IMG/VR virus record: IMGVR_UViG_2740892231_000003
Direction: 5' to 3' (one strand)
Length of the DNA: 31,603 nt
DNA from: a virus
Lineage: Duplodnaviria; Heunggongvirae; Uroviricota; Caudoviricetes
Shown piece by piece: positions 1 through 3,000 of this stretch. Each line of letters opens with the position of its first letter. Within the stretch, counting starts at the first letter, position 1. A program made the position numbers.

Positions 1-3000
1 ATTGTTGAAGGCATGCTGATGATGCTGGGAGTGAGGCTTGAGATGGATCGGTATGTTGAGCGTGAATTGCCGGGAGGGAGAACCTCTGTATTTTATCAGC
101 GAAAAAATAGTTTACGATCGTAAAAATCTGCATATCATGATAAGAGTGGTTACATTGCTACGCTGCTTAACCCGCCGATGCGCGGGTTTTTTTGTACCCA
201 GAATCCTGTGAGCTATACGGAAAGTACACAGAAAGGAAGGTGCGACCGTAATTAATAACAAAATCTTAAAAATCGCATATAGCACTATTAGTTTTCTAAA
301 TATTGTATATTTTAAGTATTGCAGGATGACCCTGTAACGAAGTTTGCGTAACAGCATTTTGCTCTACGAGTTTGCCAGCCTCCCCCAGTGGCTGGCTTTT
401 TTTATGTCCGTAACATCCTGTGTATCAATAAATGTTGTTGTCTACGTACGTCAAGTAGTCGCATGAGATCTGACCAGATATGTTAAGGTTGCAGCTCTCT
501 TTGAATATGATTATCATTTTCATTACGTTATTGTTACGTTTATCCGGTGCGCCGTAAAACGCCGTCCTTCAGGGCGTGGAGGATGTCAAGAATATAGTTA
601 TCGTATGGCGCTCAAGGAGTATTGTGTAATATGAAAATAATAATTTTTAGAGTGCTAACTTTTTTCTTTGTTATCTTTTCTGTTAATGTGGTTGCGAAGG
701 AATTTACCTTAGATTTCTCGACAGCAAAGACGTATGTAGATTCGCTGAATGTCATTCGCTCTGCAATAGGTACTCCATTACAGACTATTTCATCAGGAGG
801 TACGTCTTTACTGATGATTGATAGTGGCACAGGGGATAATTTGTTTGCAGTTGATGTCAGAGGGATAGATCCAGAGGAAGGGCGGTTTAATAATCTACGG
901 CTTATTGTTGAACGAAATAATTTATATGTGACAGGATTTGTTAACAGGACAAATAATGTTTTTTATCGCTTTGCTGATTTTTCACATGTTACCTTTCCTG
1001 GTACAACTGCGGTTACATTGTCTGGTGACAGTAGCTATACCACGTTACAGCGTGTTGCGGGGATCAGTCGTACGGGGATGCAGATAAATCGCCATTCGTT
1101 GACTACTTCTTATCTGGATTTAATGTCGCATAGCGGAACCTCACTGACGCAGTCTGTGGCAAGAGCGATGTTACGGTTTGTTACTGTGACAGCTGAAGCT
1201 TTACGTTTTCGGCAAATTCAGAGGGGATTTCGTACAACACTTGATGATCTCAGTGGGCGTTCTTATGTAATGACTGCTGAAGATGTTGATCTTACGTTGA
1301 ACTGGGGAAGGTTGAGTAGTGTCCTGCCTGACTATCATGGACAAGACTCTGTTCGTGTTGGAAGAATTTCTTTTGGAAGTGTTAATGCAATTCTGGGTAG
1401 CGTGGCATTAATACTGAATTGTCATCATCATGCATCGCGAGTTGCCAGAATTGTACCTAATGAGTTTCCTTCTATGTGCCCGGTAGATGGAAGAGTGCGT
1501 GGGATTACGCACAATAAAATATTGTGGGACTCATCCACTCTGGGGGCAATTTTGATACGCAGGGCTATTAGCAGTTGAGGGGGGTAAAATGAAAAAAATA
1601 TTATTAATAGCTGCATCACTTTCATTTTTTTCAGCAAGTGTGCTGGCTGCGCCAGATTGTGTAACTGGGAAGGTGGAGTATACAAAATATAATGATGACG
1701 ATACCTTTACAGTTAAAGTGGGAGATAAAGAATTATTTACTAACAGATGGAATCTTCAGTCTCTTCTTCTCAGTGCACAAATTACGGGGATGACGGTAAC
1801 CATTAAAACTAATGCCTGTCATAATGGAGGGGGATTCAGCGAGGTTATTTTCCGTTGACTCAGAATAGCCCGGTGAAGAGAACAGGCGGAGATTTATCAA
1901 TGTTAAATACATCTCAATTCAGTCAGTTGATTGTTGCCTGTCTGATAATAGATGTGCTACAAAATTTCTGCATGGTGAATCCCCCTGAGCGGCGGGGCAT
2001 ATCAGCGTCACAGGTGTTTCTGTTTTACCTCTATCCTTTCTGTGCGGGTTCAGGTGCTGATACTGAACTCACCGGGAGGCACCCGGCACCATGCAATGAA
2101 CGGTACATAGCGCTACTCTCCAGCCCCTCTCCGGAGGGGCTTTTTAATGAGGGGAAGACACTGGGCAGTGAAATGTTAAATCACTCACAATTCAGGTAGT
2201 TGACGGTTGTCTGCTTGGCTGCGAATTTGTTAAAAAAATCCTGCATGGTGAATCCCCCTGTGCGGAGGGGCGACTGGTGAATGGTATGATCTCTTTGATG
2301 ATCGTAAGCGAGAATACGCGGGTTTGGTGGCACCAGGCCGAACTCACCGGGAGGCACCCGGCACCATGCAGTATACAGAGATTAGGCATATATCAGGGCC
2401 CCTCATAGCAGGGGCCTTTTTACATGCAAAAAAAAGCCGCCCCGGGAAGAGCGGTTGGCAAGAAGAAAAGCAATATGAACAATTAATTAACGCTGCGAAT
2501 AATACCTTACAGTAATCACCCTGCGCAACTGTGAGGAGTGTATTTCTTTTTTGCGGGTGGTTGTCTTTTTCCCTTGTGTTTCGGGACTTCCGCTCACTCC
2601 TTATCTTATTCAGTACATTATCCCGGCCGGGAGGATTCATGGCATTTAAACACTATGACGTGGTCAGGGCGGCGTCGCCGTCAGACCTTGCGGAACGAAT
2701 AACTCAAAAACTGAAGGAAGGGTGGCAGCCTTATGGTAGTGCGCTGATTTCGACAGCTGGTTATGGTGCGGAGATCATCCAGCCAGTTGTGAGTGAGGGG
2801 AGCATCTCATCACCAGAGGAGCCAGGCAACCGTCCGACGACCTCAGCGCCTTCTGTTGCGCCAGAATATTACTATGTGATCGCGCTTGCTGGTCAGTCCA
2901 ATGGTATGTCATACGGTGAGGGACTGCCATTACCGGATACATTCGACAGCCCTGATCCACGTATTAAACAGTTAGCGCGTCGCAGTACGGTGACACCGGG

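Follow-up and report, generated by a model that had tools for sequence, protein, structure and literature searches.

The closest described relatives of the elements treated here are prophage-encoded small RNAs (sRNAs). Tree et al. 2014 (PMC4104026) found convergent sRNA pairs between a moron coding sequence (CDS) and a conserved phage open reading frame (ORF) downstream of PR'; for example, in Sp5 of E. coli O157 Sakai such a pair, EcOnc27 (sense) and AsxR (antisense), lies 3' of stx2B. EcOnc27 gave a peak in Hfq crosslinking and analysis of cDNAs (CRAC) and Northern bands of about 235 and 247 nucleotides (nt), the 247-nt form being destabilised without hfq (PMC4104026 Table S2). Here we analyse a tandem pair of units immediately 3' of the Shiga toxin gene stx1B, together with a third copy, in a 31,603-nt stretch of Caudoviricetes DNA (IMG/VR record IMGVR_UViG_2740892231_000003; the whole stretch is called the window below), and show that they are genes of the family to which EcOnc27 belongs, Rfam STnc100 (RF02076).

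The family has been met repeatedly. A 2025 paper equates STnc100 with EcOnc27 and with sRNA103 of EDL933, reports that overexpression of sRNA103 raised fimZ and espA mRNA, and lists variants in STnc100/EcOnc27 among the strongest machine-learning predictors of haemolytic uraemic syndrome (HUS) in O157:H7 (PMC12711010). Another 2025 paper placed STnc100 75 nt downstream of stx2 and detected it in outer-membrane vesicles; a position just downstream of stx2 has been reported several times (PMC4104026, PMC12370729, PMC12711010). EDL933 holds 11 STnc100 copies, most of them transcribed and one Northern-positive (PMC5331693), and chromatin immunoprecipitation with exonuclease digestion (ChIP-exo) gave an RpoD signal at Salmonella STnc100 promoters (PMC10794520). 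In enteropathogenic E. coli (EPEC) E2348/69, PasD1 and PasD2 are Hfq-dependent RNAs of 172-173 nt with targets identified by ligating and sequencing interacting RNAs (RIL-seq; Pearl Mizrahi et al. 2021, PMC8550237), their chimeras and a UGUGAG seed falling within the last ~50 nt (PMC8550237). STnc100 has since been shown to be structurally homologous to PasD1/PasD2, which lie directly upstream of the esterase gene (Zhu, Shabalina, Storz 2026; bioRxiv 10.64898/2026.05.13.724894).

An earlier note, made from the bare sequence, had described two adjacent promoter/core/terminator cassettes 3' of stx1B and a third copy at 6628-6870, had proposed candidate sRNA genes or a small mobile element, and had named no family. 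The covariance-model search that it proposed was run over the whole window (RF02076 gathering threshold, 47 bits) and gave exactly three matches above threshold, all STnc100 and all on the + strand, so that the family does have a name:

1899-2146, + strand: unit A (repeat search, alignment)
1941-2152, + strand: STnc100 match of copy A, 138.7 bits, model positions 1-206 of 206
2172-2421, + strand: unit B (repeat search, alignment)
2214-2427, + strand: STnc100 match of copy B, 198.4 bits, model positions 1-206 of 206
~6622-6873, + strand: unit C (alignment; Rfam)
6666-6878, + strand: STnc100 match of copy C, 139.4 bits, model positions 1-206 of 206

With E-values of 8e-31 to 5e-46 for three full-length, untruncated matches, the resemblance is far beyond chance. 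Units A, B and C are thus securely genes of the known prophage small-RNA family STnc100; the feature is confirmed as real and as already known, being a catalogued RNA family. The sRNA proposal of the earlier note therefore holds, and the stx2 orthologue EcOnc27/sRNA103 is both Hfq-crosslinked and Northern-verified. All of the elements that the note had described for the tandem cassettes are present, at or near the places given, and the third copy was located at ~6622-6873. The tandem units are real as well, with a minor correction to the unit size of about 245 nt given in the note: the units are ~248-250 nt long, about 25 nt separates A from B, and the repeat period is 273 nt (direct repeats between A and B at 273-275 nt spacing). 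Unit A begins 41 nt past the stx1B stop codon.

The direct repeats fall into a leader (1899-1940 against 2172-2213, 79% identity), a 5' part of the core (1952-1998 against 2225-2271, 85% identity) and a 3' part of the core (2065-2095 against 2340-2370, 31 nt, 100% identity). A three-way alignment of A, B and C showed the leader and both core ends conserved, the centre divergent and a terminator present in each, just as the note had described; the centres of A and B are unalignable to each other. The reverse-complementary 10-nt core ends that it had pointed out were recovered by repeat search as a closing inverted repeat, CTGCATGGTG/CACCATGCAG, with 13-nt arms (92%) in copy B and 9 base pairs (bp) in copy A. 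The core itself is ~125 nt long and consists of a closing stem (P1) around a small bulged hairpin (hairpin 1), an H-type pseudoknot with helix P3, and an invariant hairpin CCGGG-AGGCA-CCCGG (hairpin 4):

1970-2094, + strand: copy A structured core; P1 1970-1977/2087-2094, hairpin 1, pseudoknot, P3, hairpin 4
2243-2369, + strand: copy B structured core (Rfam match and covariation counts)
2243-2250/2362-2369: copy B P1
2254-2269: copy B hairpin 1
2320-2328/2337-2345: copy B P3
2347-2361: copy B hairpin 4
2274-2279 with 2331-2336: copy B pseudoknot, segment X CUGGUG pairing with CACCAG
6695-6821, + strand: copy C core

We sampled the family by the exact 20-mer of hairpin 4, CTCACCGGGAGGCACCCGGC, which occurs in 95 stretches of one-genome-per-species bacterial contigs and in more than 120 stretches of viral contigs; the bacterial genera that carry it include Kosakonia, Enterobacter, Pantoea, Erwinia, Klebsiella, Raoultella, Citrobacter, Kluyvera, Cedecea and Salmonella. 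Rfam assigned a varied subset of the stretches to STnc100, among them arrays holding as many as four copies, and copies with tRNAs in between. From this material 71 non-redundant cores, less than 90% similar to one another, were used to measure covariation.

Compensatory changes were found in seven of the eight P1 pairs, and the observed score was reached by none of 500 shuffles; the P1 ends vary as GCAUGGUG, GUGGUG, GCGGUG and GGUGAUG, so that it is the helix that covaries while the sequence is not conserved. The closing stem proposed in the note is thereby borne out by base changes. Hairpin 1 pairs in the register C1-G16, C2-G15, N3-N14, N4-N12, C5-G11 with base 13 bulged (99.7% paired, three doubly-changed pairs), whereas the register of Rfam and of the note, ccccct-loop-agggg, fits less well (87.3% paired, no compensatory changes); of the two local hairpins that the note had called conserved, CCGGG-AGGCA-CCCGG is indeed invariant and the other pairs differently. 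P3 lies immediately 5' of CUCACC, and pairing over its pairs 4-7 reaches 78%, compared with 53 +/- 2% for shuffled partners. The P3 loop in turn pairs with a segment 2-4 nt past hairpin 1, in a constant register with 58 distinct strand sequences, forming a pseudoknot whose helix averages 6.26 bp, where mismatched partners give 5.23 +/- 0.13 (scored by an anchored script, the register of the MAFFT columns being too variable). This pairing is missing from the structure line that cmscan prints for the Rfam model. Conserved secondary structure with covariation support is therefore present in STnc100. In copy A the pseudoknot strands are UAUCAGCGUC/GGUGCUGAUA, and P1, hairpin 1, P3 and hairpin 4 all appear in its minimum-energy fold; in that of copy B, hairpin 1 pairs with the terminator in place of the comparative structure.

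The covarying P3 and pseudoknot helices, together with an optional hairpin, imply that much of the divergent centre is structural and not free recognition sequence. The note's suggestion of a variable target-recognition region at the centre of the core is accordingly not upheld: the centre is largely pseudoknot and P3, and in relatives the Hfq-binding and seed regions lie in the 3' tail.

Two further observations concern hairpin 1. In each unit, hairpin 1 is almost the same module as the terminator hairpin (CCCCU...GGGGC; 1982-1998, 2124-2140, 2255-2271, 2399-2415), and the hairpin 1 3' strand GAGGGGC is complementary to the terminator 5' strand GCCCCUC, which is the pairing used in the copy B fold. 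This could be an alternative, terminator-disrupting fold or mere shared ancestry; Pantoea and Kosakonia copies have terminators without complementarity to hairpin 1. Separately, AGGGGGAUUCA in stx1B (1828-1838) is exactly complementary over 11 nt to UGAAUCCCCCU, present at 1976-1986, 2249-2259 and 6701-6711. That 11-mer has an expected count of 0.01 in the window, or ~0.07 when counted post hoc as any RNA 11-mer against the operon, and the complementary segment is buried within P1 and hairpin 1. For stx2B, another complementarity of 11 nt has been reported (PMC12370729).

Downstream of the core each unit has a single-stranded, A/U-rich tail of 25-35 nt followed by a strong intrinsic terminator, as the note had said; those of copies A and C were found by scan at 2122 and 6848, where AGCCCCTCTCCGGAGGGGCT precedes a T run, and that of copy B by reading and Rfam alignment:

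2095-2146, + strand: copy A 3' tail (single-stranded linker) and terminator, stem 2122-2141, T run 2142-2146 (scan and Rfam alignment)
2370-2421, + strand: copy B 3' tail AGUAUACAGAGAUUAGGCAUAUAUCA and terminator, stem 2397-2416, U5 2417-2421
6848-6867, + strand: copy C terminator (terminator scan)

The tails of A, B and C all differ in the alignment. The terminator scan called no + strand terminator from the stx1B stop codon to the copy A terminator at 2122, which is thus the first after stx1B and one of two in series before the esterase gene. With no earlier + strand terminator, stx1 transcripts lacking Q modification should enter copy A and end there, and co-transcription of cassette A with stx1, which the note had raised, is plausible.

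Across the 71 cores, terminators begin a median of 33 nt past hairpin 4 and do not overlap P1; 28 of the 71 have no terminator within 100 nt, and next comes another core, a tRNA or an ORF. We judged a riboswitch or cis-regulatory leader unlikely, given that the downstream neighbours vary (esterase, holin, opposite-strand iraM, tRNA, another core) and the terminators spare P1. A put-like processive antitermination element was also judged unlikely, since relatives give discrete terminated RNAs, the terminators spare P1 and the downstream genes vary.

The copy B tail can be tied to a studied RNA. It shares 32 of 35 positions with the reverse complement of the EcOnc27 Northern probe, and the Sakai Sp5 locus, an STnc100 match of 207.7 bits, holds the exact reverse complement of that probe, with AsxR (88 bits) back-to-back on the opposite strand. 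Given the match to the probe and the same stxB-esterase interval, copy B is the orthologue of EcOnc27 in position and sequence. Converted via the AsxR offset, the EcOnc27 CRAC peak runs from hairpin 4 through the terminator in Sakai, that is, over the 3' 80 nt; the copy B tail and terminator are likely to be the Hfq-binding and seed region.

The leaders were read against PasD2, which maps to NC_011601 741157-741328 (172 nt) with its 5' end set by RNA sequencing and Northern blot (PMC8550237 Table S6). In the alignment with the window copies, the first base of PasD2 is the G of GCAUGGUG (GCAUGG), preceded by TTGACT-18-TAAAAA, and Pantoea copies have a near-consensus TTGCTT-18-TATAAT immediately before the closing stem. 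On the strength of this homology to PasD2 and the Pantoea copies, each unit would have a weak sigma-70 promoter, TTGYCT-18-TAMAAR, with +1 at or near the first G of GCAUGGUG:

1899-1969, + strand: copy A conserved leader/promoter region (putative, by homology to the PasD2 promoter)
1934-1939 and 1958-1963, + strand: copy A putative -35 TTGCCT and -10 TACAAA (alignment to PasD2)
1927-1931, + strand: copy A TTGAT, counterpart of the hexamer of the note
2172-2242, + strand: copy B conserved leader/promoter region (alignment to PasD2)
2207-2212 and 2231-2236, + strand: copy B putative -35 TTGTCT and -10 TAAAAA (alignment to PasD2)
2200-2204, + strand: copy B TTGAC of the note
6659-6664 and 6683-6688, + strand: copy C putative -35 TTGTCT and -10 (alignment to PasD2)
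2176-2181, + strand: possible distal -10-like TTAAAT, its start suggested only by the EcOnc27 235/247-nt Northern sizes

The TTGAC that the note had taken for a -35 is displaced by this alignment, in which the PasD2 -35 TTGACT falls on TTGTCT/TTGCCT, 7 nt downstream of TTGAC. The predicted RNAs would be ~176-179 nt long, at 1970-2146 for A, 2243-2421 for B and 6695-6871 for C. Longer forms are possible if transcription begins further upstream or if the stx1 3' untranslated region (UTR) is processed: the 235/247-nt bands of EcOnc27 would place a 5' end close to where the conserved leader begins, through either a distal start or processing of the toxin mRNA.

The position of the family was surveyed at 213 loci (93 genome and 120 viral), oriented on the motif, with marker genes located by tblastn; the counts refer to loci with a match to the marker. 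Upstream of the element, on the same strand, lay Q (68 of 68) and TerB (19 of 19). Downstream on the same strand came the esterase (all 34 viral loci with a match, median +304), holin (32 of 32) and lysozyme (42 of 48), and downstream on the opposite strand iraM (9 of 9). De novo clustering of flanking ORFs agrees with this arrangement. The late-region context, co-oriented with the late operon, is seen in the window and in the survey alike, and the family thus occupies a fixed, co-oriented slot in prophage late regions. In Stx1a and Stx2a phages the slot between stxB and the esterase gene holds a single unit, since both of our query units map to one place of ~240 nt there. The exact A-B tandem is rare (about a dozen complete genomes), with more diverged collinear tandems in other Shiga toxin-producing E. 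coli, and the unit of Sp15 (Stx1a) is mosaic-like, with an A-like leader and tail and a B-like centre.

In the same clustering, 17 species showed another fixed site, located downstream of ydfH-ydfG-dcp. An STnc100-like subfamily sits at this dcp site (loci L012, L016, L027, L030, L049, L055, L056, L064 (Salmonella), L069, L076, L079, L080 and L083), with a terminator and a conserved upstream block (GTTACATAAC...ATTGACC-17-AAATAACGT) that are its own; in both dcp-site loci scanned (L064, L079) an STnc560 match lies 1-1.5 kb away. Elsewhere, some cores have neither tail nor terminator and are followed 8-25 nt downstream by a tRNA gene (Met, Gly), and others form head-to-tail arrays of up to four (L045 4622-4824; L052; L065 ~3620-3835; L020, L025 (Pantoea megaplasmid NZ_CP133292.1)). 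The tRNA-linked and arrayed cores suggest polycistronic transcription with release of the core by processing.

The best explanation, which we hold with good though not full confidence, is that the units are STnc100 genes for Hfq-associated sRNAs acting in trans via the 3' tail, with terminators that serve as Q-sensitive insulators. It joins family identity, structure and fixed position, seen directly in the present data, to Hfq binding and expression as published for orthologues; what we infer for the units is where transcription starts, how they act in trans and that they insulate. In lysogens, to judge from relatives, STnc100 RNAs would accumulate as Hfq-associated sRNAs and, most likely, would use the 3' tail to base-pair in trans; as the tails of A, B and C differ, the copies would have different targets. 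The terminators would end stx1 transcripts unmodified by Q, sparing the esterase and lysis genes, and after induction Q-modified polymerase would pass through them.

Several points weigh against this sRNA-and-insulator explanation. A generic promoter scan called no promoter in the leaders, the putative -10 hexamers lack the conserved final T, and the EcOnc27 Northern sizes of 235/247 nt exceed the ~179 nt predicted from a PasD-type start, so that the 5' end or ends given for E. coli STnc100 copies are provisional. Expression and Hfq association in this Stx1c phage would follow from orthologues; Zhu et al. 2026 state that the function of Pas sRNAs has not been elucidated. The z-scores of single-sequence folding are weak (-2.9, -1.2, -1.3). 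Moreover, the pattern of conservation, with invariant loops, stems covarying across genera and a variable tail, is atypical for a seed-pairing Hfq sRNA, as are the 28 terminator-less cores.

An alternative that overlaps with, and does not exclude, this explanation is that the units act mainly in cis as punctuation: they would be strong terminators forming the stx1 3' UTR, which bar transcription, whether iron-regulated or basal, from the esterase and lysis genes as long as the polymerase is not Q-modified, with small RNAs as by-products. The two terminators in series ahead of the esterase gene would suit such a role, as would the constant co-orientation of the family in the late operon between Q and the lysis/esterase genes and the back-to-back convergent terminator just past copy B. 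On the other hand, ~30 nt suffice for a terminator, while a 125-nt covarying, pseudoknotted core is conserved across genera and more than a third of the cores (28 of 71) have no terminator near; the RNAs of relatives are abundant, Hfq-bound and found in RIL-seq chimeras. As the principal function we consider cis-punctuation possible but rather unlikely.

A scaffold RNA, in which the pseudoknotted ~125-nt core is the functional unit with a dedicated partner (a protein, RNA or small ligand) and serves, for example, in phage-host conflict or late-gene control, with the Hfq-binding tail as an optional add-on, is in our view doubtful. It is favoured by near-invariant loops and covarying stems in ~60 Enterobacterales species, by the constant register of the pseudoknot, by cores that stand in arrays or directly upstream of tRNAs with neither tail nor terminator, and by the core-genome copy downstream of dcp; strong core conservation and the terminator-less cores thus leave room for such a function. 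At the same time, the present data suggest no partner, no conserved protein-coding neighbour recurs in every context, the terminators lie clear of the closing stem, unlike those of a riboswitch expression platform, and the existing experimental data all fit an Hfq sRNA. If the core did act as a scaffold, the tandem pair and the convergent candidate described below would together make up a small cluster of regulatory RNAs joined to the toxin operon.

Very improbable is the mobile or generic intergenic repeat of the earlier note, resembling a miniature inverted-repeat transposable element (MITE) or an enterobacterial repetitive intergenic consensus (ERIC) sequence, with the 10-nt terminal inverted repeats as transposition ends. 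In its favour, the element is multi-copy, in up to 10 places per E. coli genome, and has a terminal inverted repeat of 9-13 nt; the 10-mer GTGAATCCCC is, we presume, common to the element and the ERIC end. Against it, the inverted repeat covaries as an RNA helix, slot and orientation are strict (above all Q upstream and holin downstream), and a repeat search found no flanking direct repeats or target-site duplications. Furthermore, copy B has a match in 2668 of 5426 complete E. coli genomes and none in the other 2758, and all seven E. coli or phage loci inspected are lambdoid prophage late regions. The fixed, co-oriented slot of the survey and the lack of target-site duplications thus speak against a small mobile element, and the genome-wide scatter expected of a generic repeat was not seen.

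The weakest reading, that the units are protein-coding, as the hypothetical proteins phiSTEC1589Stx1c_36 and _37 of the phage record would have it, draws on the PQ600364.1 CDS annotations over them (21400-21699, +, and 21681-21833, -; window ~1900-2199 and 2181-2333) and on a 114-amino-acid ORF through copy A, but is effectively refuted, its probability negligible, by a frame that is not conserved (the shared ATG, in GCATGG, opens 76 codons in A and stops after 11 in B and 17 in C), by the absence of a Shine-Dalgarno sequence, by variation that is compensatory within RNA helices and by NZ_CP027323.1, which has no RefSeq CDS over the units. The two CDSs are almost certainly mis-annotated RNA genes, and the phage record needs correcting.

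Just past copy B, a second candidate sRNA gene converges on the tandem pair from the opposite strand:

2428-2528, - strand: candidate sRNA gene; -35 TTGCGC 2528-2523, 18 nt, -10 TATTAT 2504-2499
~2492 to 2428, - strand: candidate transcript (~64 nt), terminator 2454-2437 and U8 (terminator scan, sequence, fold)

Its terminator stands back-to-back with that of copy B, six nt beyond the copy B U run, and its 5' part is a U-rich, unstructured segment of ~38 nt followed directly by the terminator. The exact version is present in 17 of 5426 E. coli genomes, and a diverged homologue lies at the same place in a Stx2a prophage (L002, ~5310-5245). The candidate occupies the slot held by AsxR in the Stx2 phage Sp5, AsxR being confirmed at the equivalent Sakai position. 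The candidate gave no match to Rfam RF02703/RF02702 (AsxR/AgvB) at E<=10, while the same models find the Sakai AsxR; its sequence is unrelated to published AsxR, AgvB and EcOnc03, and the conserved ~42-nt 3' part of AsxR/AgvB (GUAUCUCAUGC.AUUGCCCGAACCCA.UCGGGC) is absent from it, so that AsxR/AgvB identity was rejected. Neither its similarity to the RyhB core (AUUGUUCAUAUUGCUU; 14.9 bits, E=9.3, not significant) nor that of the Stx2a homologue to MicF (20.3 bits, E=0.99, chance-level) is informative, and a literature string search with the candidate sequence returned only unrelated papers.

The surroundings of the units are those of a Stx1c phage, 1900-2440 being 100% identical to phage phiSTEC1589-Stx1c (PQ600364.1) and to the Stx1c prophage of E. 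coli 2013C-3033:

631-1578: stx1A
1589-1858, + strand: stx1B CDS (ORF list; Shiga toxin 1 subunit B in PQ600364.1 and NZ_CP027323.1), stop codon 1856-1858
2639-4549, + strand: nanS-p-type esterase gene, the conserved downstream neighbour (Pfam: DUF1737, SASA, DUF6645)
5936-6439: TerB-family gene flanking copy C (Pfam and annotations under BLAST matches)
6902-7237, - strand: iraM, flanking copy C (Pfam and annotations under BLAST matches)
7484-9217: second esterase gene, downstream of copy C (Pfam)

Our first assumption, that copy C lies behind the lysis cassette, was wrong: the TerB-family gene and iraM flank it, with the second esterase gene downstream. The gene iraM, whose product is an anti-adapter protein that stabilises RpoS, lies 30 nt past the copy C terminator and converges on it; in CFT073 (L003) a truncated STnc100 likewise adjoins iraM. 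Upstream of stx1A are a promoter-like TTTACG-16-TATCAT and two strong intrinsic terminators (111-138, 169-195, ~371-404), which fits the PR'/tR' late leader that Stx phages have (StxS-type short transcript). No tRNA or tmRNA gene was found in the window, and unlike in many Stx phages there are no tRNA genes between this leader and stx1A. Directly past the esterase stop codon, at ~4553-4600, is a minus-strand terminator-like hairpin (CCGCCAGC...GCTGGCGG, then U7) with the slot and orientation of EPEC PasA/PasC; its sequence is not alignable to PasA, and PasA/PasC was rejected for this place, the EPEC PasA region having no convincing alignment to window 4545-5345.

The window also contains 16 runs of exactly 10 N (5270-5279, 7728-7737, 9193-9202 ... 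31517-31526), which look like in-place masks, ORFs continuing through them in frame. Late-region modules are duplicated (two esterase genes, three lysozyme genes at 10609, 15614 and 16225, and two Rz genes at 12581 and 17381), and the interval from the first esterase gene to lysis is ~10 kb longer than in phage PQ600364 or chromosome NZ_CP027323. The N runs, the repeated modules and the extra ~10 kb call for caution on long-range adjacency in the window.

As the family is catalogued and its stx2-adjacent position already reported, the main result is that a known sRNA gene family was recognised by eye. The HUS-predictor variants in STnc100/EcOnc27 give it residual interest, and two features of this locus are unusual: the rare tandem pair and the convergent minus-strand candidate in the position of AsxR. 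Stx1c phages, with two divergent tandem copies and this candidate, lend themselves naturally to the question whether each copy has targets of its own. The pseudoknot and the revised hairpin register go beyond the Rfam structure line and, together with the structural nature of the variable centre, should guide mutational work and target prediction.

Set beside known systems, the units share with ERIC sequences/intergenic repeat units (ERIC/IRU) and MITEs their multi-copy state, a length of ~125 nt and inverted-repeat ends, and differ from them in fixed slot and orientation, covarying ends, lack of target-site duplications and the lack of a match to copy B in about half of E. coli genomes. Lambda 6S RNA and StxS are short PR'-tR' late-leader transcripts, made from a constitutive promoter and ended by a strong terminator that Q-modified polymerase reads through. 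STnc100 resembles them as a promoter, short RNA and strong terminator in the late operon downstream of Q, but it does not adjoin Q (it lies a median of ~2.2 kb downstream from where Q starts), is not a Q-loading promoter, has a large conserved fold and occurs in several copies; a Q-loading late promoter leader was rejected for E. coli because morons, tRNAs or stx stand between Q and the element. With the AsxR/AgvB/EcOnc03 anti-sRNAs the minus-strand candidate has in common its architecture alone, a short minus-strand gene that converges on an STnc100 terminator between a moron CDS and the esterase, with an unstructured 5' part and then a terminator; it differs in having no sequence similarity to them and no Rfam match at the cutoff used.

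PasD has the same slot immediately upstream of the esterase, a homologous promoter, a 5' end at the closing stem and, by alignment, a homologous 5' two-thirds of the core, and it is an Hfq-dependent sRNA of similar size. It differs in its own 3' part with the UGUGAG seed and in lacking the canonical CACCGGGAGGCACCCGG hairpin sequence. The PasD 3' region with this seed (CCUUGUGAGUUCUGGCUGCGCA) has no match in the window with up to three mismatches; since the seed tail is absent and the alignment diverges beyond the 5' two-thirds of the core, we class the copies in the window as related to PasD but outside it. EcOnc27/STnc100 itself agrees in the full-length model match, the slot between stxB and the nanS-p esterase gene, the orientation and the terminator type. 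What sets the present locus apart from it is a tandem pair after stx1B in place of the single unit of Stx1a and Stx2a phages, A and B centres and tails that are unlike each other, and a convergent partner that is not AsxR.

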